UHGV virus genome: UHGV-0124847
From: a virus
Strand: one strand, 5' to 3'
Length of the DNA: 19,129 bases
The position numbers were made by a program, and so were the translations under genes. The notes below the pieces were generated by a model. That model was given only the letters and a program-made list of their open reading frames with translations. It ran no database searches and was not told the origin of the DNA. Of this stretch, positions 2,893-11,406 are shown in pieces; within the stretch, counting starts at the first letter, position 1; each line of letters begins with the position of its first letter.

Positions 2893-3591
2893 TCACTCTC
2901 CTTTGATGCGAATGCCAGCGGCGCGTGGCACATTAACTTCCACGATGCGCACAGTTGGTTTGTACATCTCAATCGCTGTCAGCCAGTCAGCGCCAGTCAT
3001 GCGCTTTTCTGCATCGCCATTAGTCCACTTAACCGGTACACCAATAGCCTTCATCGCGATTTCTATTTCCCCGGCAATGGCGCTTTTTCCGCAACCAGTA
3101 AAACCAGAAACAACGACAAGAACTTCACCTTTGGCTGGTTTTATTTCCCGTGCTTCCAGTTCAGCAATACGCTTACTCCCATCCGAGATAACACCTTCGT
3201 AATACTCGCGTTGCTCGTTGAGTTTTGATTTTGCTTCCTCAAGCTCAACACGCAGTTTCCCTACCGTTAGCGCAATATCCTCGTTCTCCTGGTCGCGGCG
3301 TTTGATGTATTGCTGGTTTCTTTCCCGTTCATCCAGCAGCGTCAGCACAGTAGCCGGACTGGCTGCGGCGATGAATTCAGCATTGGCCTGCTGTTCCATT
3401 TGGAAATCTTCATCGAAACCGCTTTCAGGATGCGCTCCTTCAATTCTGCAAATGGGAATATATCCAGCAGCCTCGCGATGAATTAGGGCATCATCACCAT
3501 CAAATCGGCTCTCTCCATATTCGAGCGACCACTCACCACACGTTGCTTTCTCTGCCTTGGCACGCAGTGCCTGATAGTCAATCTTGTTCAT
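2893..3591 (-). CDS. Ead/Ea22-like phage protein
   Basis: 232-aa ORF with a central coiled-coil (LTVGKLRVELEEAKSKLNEQREYYE) and a C-terminal P-loop-like GFTGCGKS. Position and architecture are typical of Ead/Ea22 family proteins of lambdoid phages. Confidence 0.6.
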   Translation of the reverse strand: MNKIDYQALRAKAEKATCGEWSLEYGESRFDGDDALIHREAAGYIPICRIEGAHPESGFDEDFQMEQQANAEFIAAASPATVLTLLDERERNQQYIKRRDQENEDIALTVGKLRVELEEAKSKLNEQREYYEGVISDGSKRIAELEAREIKPAKGEVLVVVSGFTGCGKSAIAGEIEIAMKAIGVPVKWTNGDAEKRMTGADWLTAIEMYKPTVRIVEVNVPRAAGIRIKGE

Positions 3592-3592
3592 G

Positions 3593-3892
3593 TCACATCA
3601 CCCTGAATCCGTTGCATTTACGTAAGAAATCGCAGATATAGCCCTTCATTTTTTCATGCCAATCTCGATCATTCCCATTGCACCAACCATCAGGTGGAGT
3701 CCAGTTTTCTATCAGAGCAGCCATTTTCTTTGCTTTCGCCGGAGTAGCTGTTGCGGTATCGCAGTAATGACGAGTGTTAACCAACGCATCCATACCATCG
3801 ATATCAAGTACGCAAAACCATGTGTGATTCGGCATTTCAACAGATGGTATTTGTTGCCCACGTCGACGTTTATCAATAAGACATACAGTCAT
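3593..3892 (-). CDS. Hypothetical phage protein (99 aa)
   Basis: ORF tightly packed with neighbours (2-nt gap downstream, 4-nt overlap upstream), same strand as the operon. Confidence 0.5.
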   Translation of the reverse strand: MTVCLIDKRRRGQQIPSVEMPNHTWFCVLDIDGMDALVNTRHYCDTATATPAKAKKMAALIENWTPPDGWCNGNDRDWHEKMKGYICDFLRKCNGFRVM

Positions 3893-4092
3893 GGTTCCAC
3901 CTTCTCTATTTGCTTAAGACCGTCTCTCACTGCATTAAGTACGCGTTCCAGATACTGGTATTTCGGGTTTGGTGCCGTTGGCCAGTCGGCATACCACGGA
4001 TCATCACCAAAGAGATTCAGCAGTTTGTTACCGACACCGAAACAACAGCAGCTTTCTTTTACGTCATCGGCGTTTTCCGCCTCGTCCCACAT
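3889..4092 (-). CDS. Hypothetical small protein (67 aa)
   Basis: ORF in operon orientation; start overlaps the 3' end of the upstream ORF. Confidence 0.45.
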   Translation of the reverse strand: MWDEAENADDVKESCCCFGVGNKLLNLFGDDPWYADWPTAPNPKYQYLERVLNAVRDGLKQIEKVEP

Positions 4093-4432
4093 TTCTCGAG
4101 CCTGTACCGCGTCGATTTCTCTCTCTTCGTAACTTTATGATTTCTGACTTCACGAAAAGCAGATTTGCATCGTTGTCATCGTCGACCGTGCTTCGCAGTT
4201 GAGGGTCGAAATAGCCGATTAGATACTCGTTGCTGACCCGCTTAATGAACGTCTGCACATCATCACCGCCCATAGCAAACCAAGCCGCAGTCCACGCTTT
4301 TCCGTAGCAGGTGATGGTGATTCTTCCCTTACCAGGTTCGTAGTTTTCAATCATCACTCGAACCGGATCTAGTCGCTCTGCACCGGTTATAACGAATGAC
4401 AACACATCAATCTTTTCAACCGTTACACTCAC
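4064..4432 (-). CDS. Hypothetical phage protein (122 aa; C-terminal 20 aa possibly out of frame)
   Basis: ORF in operon orientation with a 4-nt overlap to the upstream gene. The basic tail (RRERNRRGTGSRNVGRGGKRR) is unlike the rest and overlaps the next ORF. Confidence 0.45.
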   Translation of the reverse strand: MSVTVEKIDVLSFVITGAERLDPVRVMIENYEPGKGRITITCYGKAWTAAWFAMGGDDVQTFIKRVSNEYLIGYFDPQLRSTVDDDNDANLLFVKSEIIKLRRERNRRGTGSRNVGRGGKRR

Positions 4433-6925: not shown

Positions 6926-7894
6926 TTAGTAGGTTATTTTTGTTGCGAATACTTCGCCTTTTACGATGGCTGTTATGATATTTTTAGCAACATCTTCTGA
7001 TGCACCAACCTTGATAAGGTCAGTAAGTATTTTGTTATTTACTTCTTTCCGGTGAGCTTTATCCTTTGCTCTACGCTCTTCTTCGTCCTTGATTCTTTTT
7101 TCTTCTGCTATTCTGGCTTGCTCTTTTGCTTCAGCCTCGCGACGGATTCGTTCAGCCTCCTCCTGTGCTTTTCTGCGTTCTGCTTCAATTGCCGCCTGCT
7201 TTTCTCTTTCAGCTCGTTCTGCTGCCTCTTTTGCTTCGCGCTGTGCTCGTTGCTCGGCTTCAATGCGTTCACGCTCTGCACGTTCCGCTGCGGCCTTAGC
7301 TTCTGCTTCTCGCCTTGCTGCTGCTTCAATTTCGGCTTTTGCCTTTGCTTCGGCTTCTGCTCTGGCTTTCTCTTCAGCTTCTCTTTTTAAGCGTTCTTCA
7401 TGCTCTCGCTTTTCCTGCTCCGCTTTGAGTCTTGCCTCTTCTCTTTGGCGGTCAAATTCGCGATCCATCAAAATCGCTATTTCATGGTCAGACTCAATTT
7501 GCTTTGCGAGAGCTTCAGCTGCTGCCTTAGCTTCTTCTTCGGCTTTAATCCGTGCCTGTTCCTCCTCATAATCAGTAAGAGGCTGGCGCGCCTTGGCTTT
7601 CAGTTCATCAAGGCGATCGCGCACTGTCTTGCGGTTGGCATCAATTAGCTTTGGAATTTCCTTCAGTTCAGCAACAAGGTCTTTGCCAAGACCATCGAGA
7701 TATGTTTTCGTCTGCGCAACTTTATACGCCAGAGAAGCGATCTCCTTTCTGCCCTTTGCCGTTGTGATATCAGGCACAAAGGACATAACTTCACGTTCAA
7801 CCTTTTGAAGGATTTCTTCAATCTGGTCGGCAGACTGAAATACAGTCATTGCATTTGCTTTTTCAATAACAACTAAATCTGTTACTTCACTCAT
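6926..7894 (-). CDS. Phage coiled-coil protein with a long E/A/K/R-rich low-complexity central region
   Basis: 322-aa ORF with a GGAGG Shine-Dalgarno upstream. Structured N- and C-terminal regions flank about 150 aa of near-periodic EAKAAAERAERE-type sequence, which is visibly periodic at nucleotide level. Confidence 0.7.
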   Translation of the reverse strand: MSEVTDLVVIEKANAMTVFQSADQIEEILQKVEREVMSFVPDITTAKGRKEIASLAYKVAQTKTYLDGLGKDLVAELKEIPKLIDANRKTVRDRLDELKAKARQPLTDYEEEQARIKAEEEAKAAAEALAKQIESDHEIAILMDREFDRQREEARLKAEQEKREHEERLKREAEEKARAEAEAKAKAEIEAAARREAEAKAAAERAERERIEAEQRAQREAKEAAERAEREKQAAIEAERRKAQEEAERIRREAEAKEQARIAEEKRIKDEEERRAKDKAHRKEVNNKILTDLIKVGASEDVAKNIITAIVKGEVFATKITY

Positions 7895-8506: not shown

Positions 8507-8744
8507 TGTAAATGTTGCAGGTATCAAGTAAGTAATTAGATGGAGCGCCATAAATTATGAATTCATCGTTTGTCGGGTCCATCTCCATCTCTTGGCCTAT
8601 TGCCATTCTTGCGTCAGTGTCATCAGAGGCGAAGCATAAAACAGCCCACGCACCCATTGTTTTAAAAAGAACTGCAATTGGCTGTGGTTTTACTGAATTT
8701 GCGTTAGCGCGAAAATCATAAATCGCACTTTCATGAAATTCCAT
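8493..8744 (-). CDS. Hypothetical phage protein (83 aa)
   Basis: First ORF downstream of N on the same strand (8-nt gap). Confidence 0.5.
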   Translation of the reverse strand: MEFHESAIYDFRANANSVKPQPIAVLFKTMGAWAVLCFASDDTDARMAIGQEMEMDPTNDEFIIYGAPSNYLLDTCNIYKKAA

Positions 8745-8752
8745 ATATCACC

Positions 8753-9052
8753 TCAAATAAGTGGTTTGCTGCCTAATTTCATTTTCTGGCGACCAACACA
8801 AGTCACACCCATTTCACTGCGTGGCTTGCGGTAGTAAATACGATTCTGTTTACTCTCGACTTCTTCTGTCTTCTTGCAGCGAAGGCTTCCGAGTGATGCT
8901 GCTTTATCTGCTCTGACGCAACCAGAGAGCTTTAGCGCAATCTTTCGCGCCAGTCGCTGCTCTTGCATTGCCTGTTCACGTTGAGCCTGTCTGCGTGCTC
9001 TGCGGCGATTTCTGGCGTTATCGTCAGCCAGATATGTAATGACTACTGCCAT
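8753..9052 (-). CDS. N: N-type transcription antitermination protein
   Basis: 99-aa ORF with an N-terminal arginine-rich motif (NARNRRRARRQAQREQ). C-terminus (YYRKPRSEMGVTCVGRQKMKLGSKPLI) parallels the lambda N C-terminus (WYSKPGERGITCSGRQKIKGKSIPLI). GGAGG Shine-Dalgarno; nutL upstream. Confidence 0.85.
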   Translation of the reverse strand: MAVVITYLADDNARNRRRARRQAQREQAMQEQRLARKIALKLSGCVRADKAASLGSLRCKKTEEVESKQNRIYYRKPRSEMGVTCVGRQKMKLGSKPLI

Positions 9053-9159
9053 GTTGACCTCCGATGATTGACTTTGGCGGTGACGCGCCGGGTGCTTATC
9101 TTCCGGTTGCTGTCGTGCAGCTGCACTTCACGTCACCCCAAAGCCAACTACTCTTTGGT

Positions 9160-9200
9160 TCCCGCATTTCGGCGGGACAATCCCATCAATGTTAAAGAGC
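9160..9200 (-). promoter_or_regulatory. nutL (boxA GCTCTTTAAC plus boxB hairpin)
   Basis: Minus-strand read: GCTCTTTAACA, a 13-nt spacer, then the hairpin TCCCGC-CGAAAU-GCGGGA. The same boxA and boxB core recur on the plus strand after cro (nutR). Confidence 0.7.
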
Positions 9201-9246
9201 CTGCCAATCTGTTCCGTTTGGCTACCAGCGTCCTGCTGATGGCTAA

Positions 9247-9333
9247 AGAATACTGTAGGTATTTTATTGTGTAAATACCCAAGGTATTTATTTTTGGTGA
9301 AATAATGATAAGCAAATGAATACAAAGGATATT
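9247..9333 (-). promoter_or_regulatory. pL promoter with OL operator sites
   Basis: Minus strand: -35 TTTACA (plus coords 9270..9275), 17-bp spacer, -10 TATTCT (9247..9252). Operator-like dyads AATAC-N5-GTATT at 9249..9263 and 9274..9288, and a degenerate one at 9319..9333. Confidence 0.55.
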
Positions 9334-9419
9334 TATTTTTTCGGTGTCTGCTTGTTCAGTGCTTTTTATGCGGGATATGTGAAGTGGATCCCGATAGCTA
9401 TTGCTGCCGGGATTATGAG

Positions 9420-9809
9420 TTAGTCAGCGAAGGTTAAGACGAGAATTACCTTAATGATGTCTGCTACAACAGACACGGCCATAGATAAACCAAAGACGAT
9501 CCAAGCCATAGAGATGTCTTCACTACCATCGTATAGAGTTCCGTAATCACTGGTGTAAGGCGTAAATGTCGCGCCTTGATACAACAGGTATAAGCTTGAA
9601 CCATAGAGGATAAATGCAGATATCCCTTGTATTGCTATGATCACTAGAATCATGAAACGAGCTGATCTATGCGCCCAAGCCTGGCTTATTTTTTCTGATA
9701 GAGATTTCGCAATAAAAGCATGCGCTAAGCCGTAAATTGTCGAGATTGCCAACATCCCAAAAAAGCTTGCTATAGCGGTTCCAACCATAATCGCCCCTTG
9801 CGTGATCAA
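9420..9809 (-). CDS. Small integral membrane protein (129 aa, three predicted TM helices) co-transcribed with cI
   Basis: ORF start overlaps the cI stop (ATGA-type overlap). Three long hydrophobic segments. Occupies the position of rexA/rexB in lambda; no similarity to RexB in my reading. Confidence 0.65.
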   Translation of the reverse strand: MITQGAIMVGTAIASFFGMLAISTIYGLAHAFIAKSLSEKISQAWAHRSARFMILVIIAIQGISAFILYGSSLYLLYQGATFTPYTSDYGTLYDGSEDISMAWIVFGLSMAVSVVADIIKVILVLTFAD

Positions 9810-10522
9810 ACCAGCCTTAGTTTTGTCTCAATTGCAACGCCTATAATCTTGCAGTTTCCATTGATTGGCACGAGAGGCCATGCAGGATTAAGTCCCTTGA
9901 GGTATTTATTTCCGCCGTCGATTATCAGCTTCTTGAATGTTGCTTCGTTAGAGTCAGAAAGTTTTGCTATGACCAAGCTGCCGTTGATCGCCTCCCTTCC
10001 GGTATCGAAAAGAACGAATGTTCCCTCTGGAATGCTTAACCCAACCGGTGCCGTCATTGAATCACCTTCCACTTTAAGCCAAAACGCATTACCTTGAATA
10101 TGCGCGTCAGACTCAAGCCAAACATCTATGTCTTTAATGGTGTATGGTTCGCATGCTTCACACCACGAGCCAGCCTGGATACTGCTTAACACCGGATACC
10201 TCTTTCCTGCTCTGTATTCCCCTGCATACCTTACGTTGGCATCGCTCTTAAGGCTTTCTGCCTGTTCTGCAACCTTGGCAGCAATTGACTGGCTAAAATC
10301 AGCAATTGAGACTTGCAACAATCGTGCAAAACCAGATGCAACCTCAACGTTTAGCGCGTTTCTGCCATTAAGATAATGCCCTACCGCTCCTTGGGTGATA
10401 CCCAGTTCATCAGCGATTGAGTATTGGGTTATTCCCAATTCTTTCTTTTTTGACTCATACAAAGCCTTAAGCCGCTTAGCGTCTTCGAGCTGTTCTGTCG
10501 TCAGTGATTTTTTATTTTCCAT
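9806..10522 (-). CDS. cI: CI-type prophage repressor (HTH plus LexA-like S24 autocleavage domain)
   Basis: 238-aa ORF. N-terminal HTH (LGITQYSIADELGITQGAVGHYLNG) follows the lambda CI pattern; C-terminal S24 peptidase motifs (GDSM...FKKL). Divergent from cro across the operator region. Confidence 0.9.
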   Translation of the reverse strand: MENKKSLTTEQLEDAKRLKALYESKKKELGITQYSIADELGITQGAVGHYLNGRNALNVEVASGFARLLQVSIADFSQSIAAKVAEQAESLKSDANVRYAGEYRAGKRYPVLSSIQAGSWCEACEPYTIKDIDVWLESDAHIQGNAFWLKVEGDSMTAPVGLSIPEGTFVLFDTGREAINGSLVIAKLSDSNEATFKKLIIDGGNKYLKGLNPAWPLVPINGNCKIIGVAIETKLRLV

Positions 10523-10528
10523 AGCTTA

Positions 10529-10599
10529 ATTCTAATAGCTAAGGTACTTAAACTAAAAATACCCTGAGTATTGATTGTTTTGAATACCTGTAGTATTCT
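10529..10599. promoter_or_regulatory. OR operator region with divergent pRM and pR promoters
   Basis: Three 15-bp dyads AATAC-N5-GTATT at 10534..10548, 10558..10572 and 10583..10597 (24-25 bp centre spacing). pR: -35 TTGATT 10571..10576 and -10 TATTCT 10594..10599. pRM on minus: -10 TAGAAT (10529..10534) ending 6 nt before the cI ATG, which implies a leaderless cI mRNA. Confidence 0.6.
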
Positions 10600-10628
10600 T
10601 TATTCATGGTTAATAACGGAGAGTGCAT

Positions 10629-10823
10629 ATGATTCGAATGACACTTGCCGATTACGCCAAAATCCATGGACAGGCTAAAGCAGCCAGTGACTTTGGTGTA
10701 ATCCAGTGCGCTATCAGCAAGGCCATTCTGGCAGGCCGTAACATCATGGTTACGGTAAAGCCTGATGGCAGTGTGATTGGAGAGGAAGTTCGTCCTTTCC
10801 CAAGCAACAAGAAAAACAAATAG
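10629..10823 (+). CDS. cro: Cro repressor
   Basis: The protein parallels lambda Cro throughout ([29 protein letters not shown]...PDGSV..EEV.PFPSNKK). Start placed at the ATG 7 nt after GGAGAG; the track ORF begins two codons earlier at GTG. Confidence 0.85.
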
Positions 10824-10829
10824 TAACAC

Positions 10830-10875
10830 CGCTCTTTAACAGTCATGGTCCTCATTCCCGCCGAAATGCGGGAAT
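10830..10875 (+). promoter_or_regulatory. nutR (boxA CGCTCTTTAAC plus boxB hairpin)
   Basis: boxA directly after the cro stop; boxB is ATTCCCGC-CGAAAU-GCGGGAAT at 10854..10875. Core identical to nutL. Confidence 0.7.
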
Positions 10876-10931
10876 ACAACGCGCATAAGTTGATGCGCAT
10901 AACTTCTTATTAGTTAAGGAAATACTTACAT

Positions 10932-11210
10932 ATGCAACTTACAAGTACTCGCAAGAAAGCGAATGCAATTACAAGCAACATCATGAATCGAATTGCTGTA
11001 CGTGGTCAGCGAAAGGTTGCCGACGCGTTAGGGATTAATGAATCGCAAATTTCGCGATGGAAAGACAGCTTTATCCCAAAGATGGCCATGCTTCTGGCTG
11101 TTCTTGAATGGGGTGTTGAAGACGAGGAGTTGGCGGAACTGGCTAAGAAAGTAGCCAGAATGCTGACAAAAGAAAAAGCCCCGAAGAACGGCGAATTCTT
11201 CGAGGCCTGA
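10932..11210 (+). CDS. cII: CII transcriptional activator
   Basis: 92-aa ORF matching lambda CII across the HTH and tetramerisation region (KSQISRWK...IPK.SMLLAVLEWGV). Confidence 0.9.
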   Translation: MQLTSTRKKANAITSNIMNRIAVRGQRKVADALGINESQISRWKDSFIPKMAMLLAVLEWGVEDEELAELAKKVARMLTKEKAPKNGEFFEA

Positions 11211-11244
11211 TGTAGAAAGACTGGATCAATCCACAGGAGTAATT

Positions 11245-11406
11245 ATGACAAAACGTCGTAAGAAATACCAGGAAAAAGAAGAGATTCGACACCCTGATTC
11301 ACCTGAGGGATTAGTGGTAGCCGCAGCAAATAACAGGGCGTTCGCAGAGCGCCTTGTTGGTGTTTACAGACTAGCCAAAGCAGGAGTGAAACATGGGCGT
11401 CGTTAA
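11245..11406 (+). CDS. Hypothetical small basic protein (53 aa, [53 protein letters not shown])
   Basis: Hand-translated. AGGAG Shine-Dalgarno 5 nt upstream; its 3' end overlaps the start of the O-like gene. Confidence 0.4.
   Translation: MTKRRKKYQEKEEIRHPDSPEGLVVAAANNRAFAERLVGVYRLAKAGVKHGRR

Follow-up and report, generated by a model that had tools for sequence, protein, structure and literature searches.

What does the gene that directly follows a phage repressor gene do for the lysogen that carries it? This question is raised by a small open reading frame (ORF) next to cI in UHGV virus genome UHGV-0124847, from which we analyzed a stretch of 19,129 nucleotides (the window). The window covers the early part of a mosaic lambdoid prophage, running from integrase through the pL operon and the immunity region to O and a DnaB-type helicase, and on toward nin/Q. 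A preliminary description of this DNA had pointed to an unknown 129-residue protein with three hydrophobic helices, translationally coupled to cI, and had proposed it as a candidate for an exclusion or defence function. The ORF does lie directly downstream of a cI-type repressor gene, on the minus strand between cI and OL/pL, in the slot equivalent to that of rexAB. Our analysis indicates that it is hkaS, a gene catalogued already, whose product is best described as a lysogen-expressed accessory membrane protein of the repressor operon and for which a defence reading is reasonable.

Judged by its sequence matches, the ORF after cI is the hkaS gene of coliphage HK620, and a real gene. Residues 8–129 of the mechanically called ORF (9420–9809, minus strand; TTG start, 129 residues in the ORF list) cover positions 1–122 of the 122-position profile of PHROG 6534 (E = 3.6e-79), a family of unknown function, and the window protein is 97.5–99% identical to the annotated HkaS of HK620 (AAK28867.1), HK630, HK140, mEpX2, and other phages, Stx2c phages among them. 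The surrounding DNA tells the same story: window positions 8700–10900 are 98.9–99.1% identical to the immunity regions of HK620, HK630, HF4s, and HZ41, and HK140, mEpX2, and two Stx2c-converting phages have the same immunity module with a different N region. (Positions in the HK620 record convert to window coordinates with an offset of 7360.) Databases label the gene 'unknown' in the HK620 record and 'HkaS protein' or 'hypothetical protein' elsewhere, giving no function, and a literature search on hkaS, its family, and its carrier phages found no paper that discusses the gene. The ORF is therefore not new, having been annotated as hkaS since the HK620 genome record. It is also not a chance ORF, because it matches PHROG 6534, is nearly identical to annotated hkaS, shows a ratio of nonsynonymous to synonymous substitution rates (dN/dS) of 0.13–0.25, and is intact in 63 of 63 close IMG/VR copies. 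A foreign-DNA signal in base composition was considered and rejected, the difference between hkaS (42% guanine plus cytosine) and cI (45%) being unremarkable.

The hkaS coding sequence occupies 9420–9788 on the minus strand, from an ATG at 9788 to a TAA stop at 9420–9422, an assignment based on the full-length match to PHROG 6534, the equivalent position in HK620, in-frame stops upstream in homologs, the AlphaFold2 model, and hydropathy. This ATG is residue 8 of the mechanical ORF and the first residue of both the PHROG profile and all annotated homologs. Database homologs are all 122 residues long, and one homolog in our alignment has 121. A Shine-Dalgarno sequence, AAGGGG, can be read at 9794–9799 (minus strand), 5 nt 5' of the ATG, and AAGGA or AAAGGA is found 5–8 nt 5' of it in the Salmonella, Hafnia, and metagenome lineages. 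The mechanically called start is a TTG (9809–9807, minus strand) that overlaps the cI TGA (9808–9806). We rejected this stop/start overlap as the start of the gene: it is unconserved, and homologs have in-frame stops between TTG and ATG, namely a TAA directly 5' of the ATG in the Salmonella lineage (loci L003, L005, and L006) and the cI TGA itself, in frame upstream of the ATG, in the Hafnia lineage (L009 and L011). The TTG at 9809 is thus probably unused. The gap between the cI stop and the hkaS ATG, 17 nt in the window, is 17–20 nt in every lineage. Since the profile start, the homolog lengths, the Shine-Dalgarno sequence, the upstream stops, and the kept gap all agree, we take the product to be 122 residues long and to be initiated independently. 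The length of 129 residues, the start overlapping the cI stop, and the translational coupling that had been proposed all give way to this arrangement, in which hkaS has its own Shine-Dalgarno sequence and an ATG 17 nt past the cI stop.

Expression together with the repressor fares better. The first gene of the operon, cI (9806–10522, minus strand), encodes a 238-residue repressor with HTH_3 and Peptidase_S24 domains, as identified by Pfam, by PHROG, and by 98.9% DNA identity with the HK620 immunity region. A promoter scan found no promoter-like site between cI and hkaS, and 9 nt past the hkaS stop there is an RNA hairpin (9388–9413, minus strand; −13.7 kcal/mol, z −2.9) that, from its folding energy, is likely the 3' end, or terminator, of a cI-hkaS transcript. 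In three other lineages, this position is again taken by a hairpin, though of unrelated sequence (−16 to −18.5 kcal/mol, z from −2.0 to −5.5). Because the window hairpin is followed by no canonical T-run, we infer its terminator role from position and energy. Co-transcription of cI and hkaS is well supported by this anatomy, and with no intervening promoter and a hairpin past the stop, expression from both the pRM and pRE transcripts is expected, in keeping with the earlier suggestion that the protein is made whenever repressor is made. At the other end of the operon (10520–10550, cI strand, minus), a TAGAAT hexamer stops 6 nt short of the cI ATG, with OR2 directly against the expected −35 position, an arrangement that suggests that cI mRNA from pRM is leaderless, as in lambda. 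Given its strong Shine-Dalgarno sequence, hkaS may be translated more efficiently than cI off the shared transcript.

What kind of protein would this transcript produce? HkaS is predicted to be a three-helix inner-membrane protein with nearly its whole chain in the membrane. Hydropathy gave three hydrophobic segments, and an AlphaFold2 model built from the family alignment (mean predicted local distance difference test score 89.6, predicted template modeling score 0.76) has helices at residues 2–29, 41–73, and 89–121, a short helix at 31–38, and a beta-hairpin at about 78–86, so the three hydrophobic helices first reported are recovered by both methods. Of the charged residues in loop 28–44, four are basic and one is acidic, with His40 in addition, and loop 73–92 has four acidic residues; under the positive-inside rule, these charges argue for an N-out/C-in topology. 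The predicted protein would then have a basic amphipathic cytoplasmic loop of 17 residues, an acidic aromatic periplasmic beta-hairpin of 20 residues, and a C-terminal LTFAD at the cytoplasmic face. A possible signal peptide cleavage site at A22-H-A24 was rejected, as there is no basic N-terminal region and the motif is unconserved.

Aligning HkaS from seven lineages (49–83% identity), we found 34 residues, the start, and the Shine-Dalgarno sequence to be invariant, even down to 49% identity. The invariant residues include K33, Q36, W38, H40, A43, R44, and F45 in the cytoplasmic amphipathic loop, Q54, S106, D110, and K113 inside the helices, and the LTFAD tail. Mean pairwise identity is 0.45 in the periplasmic loop, the least conserved segment, 0.62 in the cytoplasmic loop, and 1.0 in the tail.

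We conclude from comparisons at the sequence and model level that HkaS is a narrow orphan family, without a detectable relative in any known exclusion or defence family. The 122-residue protein had no significant match in Pfam or NCBIfam (the best, TssN, at E = 0.044, is far below its cutoff), and no defence-protein model in PADLOC (PADLOC-DB v2) matched it, even at E values up to 10. In a full hidden Markov model scan, 1.84 billion cluster representatives yielded nothing but the one that stands for this family and a 44-residue fragment, and the 12 clusters from a word-seeded search of 5.8 billion proteins were all HkaS family. A sequence profile search of the PDB gave 0 matches, and Foldseek of the model against BFVD and PDB gave nothing better than E = 0.36. 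Direct profile comparison with hhalign gave probabilities of 0.56% for RexB, 0.58% for SieA, 0.16% for the SieB-like HkaP of HK620, 0.17% for the lambda S holin, and 0.15% for 434 sHex. The checks of profile, structure, and topology that the preliminary description had called for thus yielded a predicted three-helix N-out/C-in protein with no match to a housekeeping or known exclusion family, and its view that the protein resembles neither RexB nor SieB agrees with these hhalign values and with the lack of a Pfam or PHROG match.

The distribution of the family gives further clues. We found it in 146 of 5426 complete E. coli genomes, always on the chromosome, in 16 of 50,697 phage records, and, among approximately 185,000 species-representative genomes, in a single one, a Buttiauxella. 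Apart from Buttiauxella, the hosts named are Escherichia, Salmonella, Enterobacter, and Hafnia, and the exact window protein is present on at least 1000 contigs, where it is always called hypothetical. Carriers belong to Lederbergvirus (HK620, HF4s), Lambdavirus (HK630), Hendrixvirinae (mEpX2), and Traversvirus (phi296), and hkaS is independent of virion type. At every examined locus, with homologs 49–83% identical, hkaS comes right after a cI with an HK620-type C-terminal domain. The flanks are mosaic, with differing N types, recombination modules, and replication modules, and besides cI and cro no partner gene is conserved within about 4 kb of hkaS; the earlier suggestion that the protein may be an effector needing a partner encoded elsewhere finds no support here.

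At one Buttiauxella sp. locus (L013, 2067–3369), cI is a hybrid: its HTH domain, like the neighboring cro, is of another immunity type, and its C-terminal domain is HK620-type. An hkaS that is 55% identical still follows this hybrid cI, and the sequence implies a recombination joint within cI, between its two domains. Because this locus keeps only the cI C-terminal domain and hkaS, hkaS is linked to the 3' half of cI and not to operator specificity.

The two linked genes evolve at different rates. HkaS proteins are 52–61% identical where the cI proteins are 86–89% identical, an amino-acid divergence about three to four times that of cI. dN/dS for hkaS is 0.13–0.25 over shallow and deep comparisons, indicating purifying selection; between the window and the Hafnia-type lineage, it is 0.13 for hkaS and 0.03 for cI. 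The 63 close copies in IMG/VR, all intact, encode 24 variants of the protein, and their segregating sites number 30 nonsynonymous and 14 synonymous. In the same loci, cI has 6 nonsynonymous and 29 synonymous sites, a comparison in which cI variation is deflated because the loci were picked by cI similarity. hkaS is, in short, constrained yet comparatively fast-evolving.

Two homopolymer runs lie within hkaS, a T6 run at codons 9–10 (9759–9764) and an A6 run at codons 32–34 (9691–9696). In phage HF4s (L098, 637–1005), a 1-nt deletion in the A6 run at codon 32 frameshifts the gene, and one metagenomic variant (P0007) is out of frame exactly between the T6 and A6 runs, which looks like a double slip. 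Such changes in run length could be sequencing errors, could reflect dispensability in lytic propagation, or could represent slippage-prone on/off switching.

To see whether the slot after cI is variable, we surveyed 80 IMG/VR loci with a related cI, one of which ends right after cI and could not be scored. hkaS was present in all 64 scorable loci whose cI is at least 87% identical, and absent from all 15 whose cI is 76–78% identical. We examined the ORF content of the slot in 10 of these 15 hkaS-less loci. Four hold a 141-residue protein followed by a 205-residue MqsA-type antitoxin (Pfam PF15731, E = 8e-19), one holds an unrelated 131-residue protein, and five have no evident same-strand gene. 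The slot is thus variable, with sister phages holding the MqsA-type pair, another gene, or none. The four loci with the MqsA-type cassette (L083, L088, L090, and L093, at about 3334–4386) have a cI 76% identical to that of the window; by sequence the pair is a candidate toxin-antitoxin or defence module, with no PADLOC match.

Other phages supply precedents for the slot. The rexAB genes, stk of 933W, and hex of 434 are co-transcribed from pRM and have exclusion phenotypes (PMC3564112), and bstA lies downstream of cI, in a study that cites the cI-N interval as a mosaic hotspot (PMC8585504). All of the characterized genes of the slot that we checked in the literature, rexAB, stk, and hex (PMC3564112) and bstA (PMC8585504), have an exclusion phenotype. 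This record, together with the MqsA-type pair in sister phages, counts for an exclusion function of hkaS.

We therefore tentatively favor the reading that HkaS is a stand-alone inner-membrane superinfection-exclusion protein, to which we give a probability of about 35%. In this reading, the prophage is lambdoid with HK620 immunity, and hkaS would come second, after cI, in its maintenance operon, transcribed, as the anatomy suggests, from pRM in the lysogen and from pRE while lysogeny is being established. Translation from a ribosome-binding site of its own would begin 17 nt past the cI stop, and the transcript would end at the hairpin before OL. HkaS in the inner membrane of the lysogen would block incoming phage genomes from crossing, either because it interferes with the ejection or tape-measure proteins that form the phage's channel or because it ties up a host inner-membrane protein on which these depend. 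The infected cells would survive, following the logic of P22 SieA, T4 Imm, and HK97 gp15 with a protein of an unrelated family.

Several observations put this reading first. HkaS has no soluble sensing domain and hkaS has no conserved partner, and so self-sufficient membrane action fits better than a sensor-effector pair. The protein is expected to be constitutive in lysogens, and its variable part would be periplasmic. An intact, constrained, fast-diverging gene with a variable periplasmic loop is also the pattern expected of a protein that faces changing invaders. Finally, SieA is a precedent: the known stand-alone, small, polytopic inner-membrane proteins that phages make in lysogeny or early infection are entry blockers (e.g., SieA; PMC10883804).

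Other observations weigh against exclusion at entry. No experiment or homology ties HkaS to an exclusion protein, with every hhalign value below 1% and nothing from PADLOC. hkaS travels with the C-terminal half of cI and not with tail or ejection genes, and it is found in phages with at least four types of virion, a spread that is not the obvious one for an entry blocker matched to a single injection machinery. The invariant residues lie at the cytoplasmic face and in helix 3 (K33–F45, D110, K113, and LTFAD), not on the periplasmic side, where a phage first arrives, and the faster evolution of hkaS may come from looser constraint on membrane helices. Of the original proposal of an exclusion or defence gene, then, the uncharacterized membrane protein, the slot, and the expression anatomy stand; a defence function for hkaS is something we purely infer, and 434 Hex illustrates an alternative, at the level of repressor cleavage. 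Because of the independence of virion type and the conserved cytoplasmic face, we keep two other explanations alive.

The first, possible but doubtful, is that hkaS has no role in defence and instead tunes lysogen stability or induction, modulates a host inner-membrane protein, or confers an envelope trait by lysogenic conversion; candidate host targets are the FtsH/HflKC protease that controls cII, a transporter, or a sensor kinase. The model here is 434 Hex, which is co-transcribed from pRM and makes lysogens more stable in that it keeps the 434 and P22 repressors from RecA-mediated cleavage (PMC3564112). The Buttiauxella locus fits such a role in that HkaS stays with the cI C-terminal domain, responsible for cleavage and oligomerization, despite a swapped DNA-binding domain and cro, although physical adjacency is the simplest account of this linkage. 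A conserved cytoplasmic face suits a conserved host or phage partner more than a variable invader, and expression from pRE would place HkaS at the lysis-lysogeny decision. However, a regulator that binds a conserved host protein is expected to evolve slowly, and HkaS is 49–61% identical where cI is 86–89% identical. HkaS also offers almost no soluble surface, whereas the active fragment of Hex is a soluble 61-residue peptide, to which HkaS has no similarity.

The second explanation, which we consider unlikely, is that HkaS is an abortive-infection membrane effector with the logic of RexB: an oligomeric pore or ion leak that is closed in the healthy lysogen and opened on infection. The trigger would be a phage product acting on the conserved cytoplasmic loop, or a sensor encoded elsewhere. 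The infected cell would then lose its membrane potential and be dead before any phage is released. The slot and the operon position are those of rexAB (PMC8585504), and the size and three-helix N-out/C-in topology are those of class I holins. Invariant intramembrane residues (Q54, S106, D110, and K113) and the conserved amphipathic cytoplasmic loop could form a gate or trigger site, and independence of virion type suits a general defence better than a block at entry. Against these points, no lineage has a rexA-like or other sensor gene beside hkaS, the hhalign values for RexB (0.56%) and the S holin (0.17%) are negligible, and HkaS, with three helices, is one short of the four of RexB. For specific sensing, a 17-residue loop offers scant surface, and a lone three-helix bundle would have to oligomerize to make a pore.

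Two further explanations have much less in their favor. HkaS could be an 'orphan immunity' protein that the prophage carries to guard lysogens against competitors, not phages; the toxin countered would be one that targets membranes, for instance a colicin or bacteriocin of the pore-forming kind or a contact-dependent effector. Immunity proteins of the E1 type of pore-forming colicins have about 110–130 residues and three inner-membrane helices, a size and architecture like those of HkaS, and constitutive low-level expression from the repressor promoter would suit such a task; but we found no colicin-immunity match in Pfam or NCBIfam and no toxin gene nearby in any locus, and we know of no precedent for a colicin-type immunity gene in the cI slot, making this reading very improbable. 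The least probable, that hkaS is a decaying or functionless ORF wedged between cI and OL, could call on the HF4s frameshift, by which hkaS is dispensable for plaque formation, and on the fairly high within-population ratio of nonsynonymous to synonymous segregating sites (30 to 14), but it is largely refuted by dN/dS of 0.13–0.25, near-constant length, the invariant start, Shine-Dalgarno sequence, and 34 residues, 63 of 63 intact copies, and occurrence on at least 1000 contigs.

Returning to defence in the broader sense, we put at even odds the proposal that HkaS founds a new, enterobacteria-restricted family of stand-alone, almost fully membrane-embedded anti-phage proteins carried on the repressor transcript, acting by entry block or by infection-triggered permeabilization with no dedicated sensor. 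The protective mechanism would reside in the conserved cytoplasmic-face motifs K33-x2-Q-x-W-x-H-x2-A-R-F and D110-x2-K...LTFAD.

The remaining features of the immunity region frame the cI-hkaS operon. Upstream of it, OR3 (10533–10549), OR2 (10557–10573), and OR1 (10582–10598) carry pRM and pR and were identified by the operator pattern and by OR annotation at equivalent positions in HK620. cro (10629–10823, plus strand) and cII (10932–11210, plus strand) follow, as assigned from the HK620 record and our own searches. Downstream, OL operators at 9248–9264, 9273–9289, and 9318–9334 (minus strand) were placed by the operator pattern, by HK620 annotation for the first two, and by conservation of all three across lineages; together with pL (9240–9275, or 9275–9247 by a narrower placement, minus strand; promoter scan and HK620 annotation), they bound the slot on its downstream side. 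The pL operon opens with an N antiterminator gene of the phage 21/H-19B type (8753–9052, minus strand; PHROG 271, E = 2.6e-36, and HK620 annotation). The operator consensus, AAATACCnnnGGTATTT, was matched 7 times, against a chance expectation of 0.82.

The first two OL sites agree with the HK620 record, and the third is our own placement. The record has OL3 at the equivalent of 9295–9311 and a terminator, 'tIMM', at 9308–9338. We found a third operator-like palindrome, GAATACAAAGGATATTT, at 9318–9334, with three mismatches to the consensus and conserved in four of four lineages. On this pattern, the annotated 'tIMM' is probably the true OL3, and the hairpin at 9388–9413 is a better candidate for the terminator. 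An Rfam scan of 8600–11300 gave only a chance match to a eukaryotic scaRNA (E = 0.56).

Two other ORFs deserve mention. A strongly hydrophobic ORF of 35 residues, MNTKDIYFFGVCLFSAFYAGYVKWIPIAIAAGIMS, lies at 9316–9423 on the plus strand, convergent to hkaS and overlapping its stop codon region by 4 nt, and is annotated as a protein in phage HF4s. We considered it as a partner of hkaS or a small toxin and rejected it: it has no ribosome-binding site, its start is inside the third operator, and the region is unconserved in the Salmonella and metagenome lineages. It is probably spurious. Within the pL operon, 6926–7894 (minus strand) encodes a 322-residue protein with a long low-complexity coiled-coil stretch rich in Glu, Ala, Arg, and Lys, whose repetitive composition gives rise to many spurious overlapping ORFs on both strands.

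Why does such a small gene matter? The studied genes of the cI-N slot are prophage weapons or regulators of induction, with lambda rexAB and BTP1 bstA among them, and hkaS sits in a widespread immunity module, including that of Stx2c-converting phages, that has been functionally blank at this position since the HK620 record. A protein of 122 residues without a soluble domain would be a compact system in which a membrane protein alone stops a phage or tunes lysogeny. If HkaS is an entry blocker, it would be a new family in a known class and so no conceptual surprise, but it would help host-range prediction and phage therapy against Shiga-toxin-producing E. coli.

How does HkaS compare with known systems? 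HkaS of HK620 is the same gene in the same position between cI and OL, with the same 122 residues, and differs in nothing of substance. RexB, like HkaS, is a small polytopic inner-membrane protein, encoded in the cI-OL slot and co-transcribed with the repressor. It has no sequence relation to HkaS, however, and has 144 residues and four transmembrane helices where HkaS has 122 and three. RexB depolarizes the membrane when infection triggers it and excludes T4 rII mutants. It is also partnered by a RexA-type sensor, whereas hkaS stands alone between cI and OL, both in the window and at every homologous locus. The lambda S105 holin has an N-out/C-in topology, and HkaS shares this predicted three-helix topology with class I holins of that type, as well as their size class of about 105–120 residues; class I holins are encoded in the late lysis cassette by the endolysin, whereas hkaS lies in the repressor operon, and HkaS has no Pfam holin match.

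Among the exclusion proteins, SieB has no Pfam or PHROG match to HkaS, and hkaS lies on the other side of N from the leftward location of SieB. SieA is, like HkaS, a small, stand-alone, polytopic inner-membrane protein expressed from a prophage, expression in the case of HkaS being deduced from the anatomy. SieA blocks the delivery of DNA, and mutations that escape it map to the ejection proteins (PMC10883804). The two have no sequence relation, and sieA has immI and the ejection-protein genes as neighbors and a promoter to itself, whereas hkaS belongs to the cI operon. On the pRM transcript of phage 434, hex directly follows a related cI, as hkaS does its own, and it is expressed in lysogens, where Hex brings about heterologous exclusion of P22 (PMC3564112). 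Hex lowers the spontaneous induction that depends on recA. The active fragment of Hex is soluble and acts on repressor autocleavage, whereas HkaS is predicted to be nearly all membrane-embedded. BstA of the Salmonella prophage BTP1 is, as proposed for HkaS, a single-gene prophage defence, encoded downstream of cI under a shared promoter (PMC8585504). BstA is larger, gathers where phage DNA is replicated, and comes with a DNA self-immunity element (PMC8585504), whereas HkaS is a small membrane protein.

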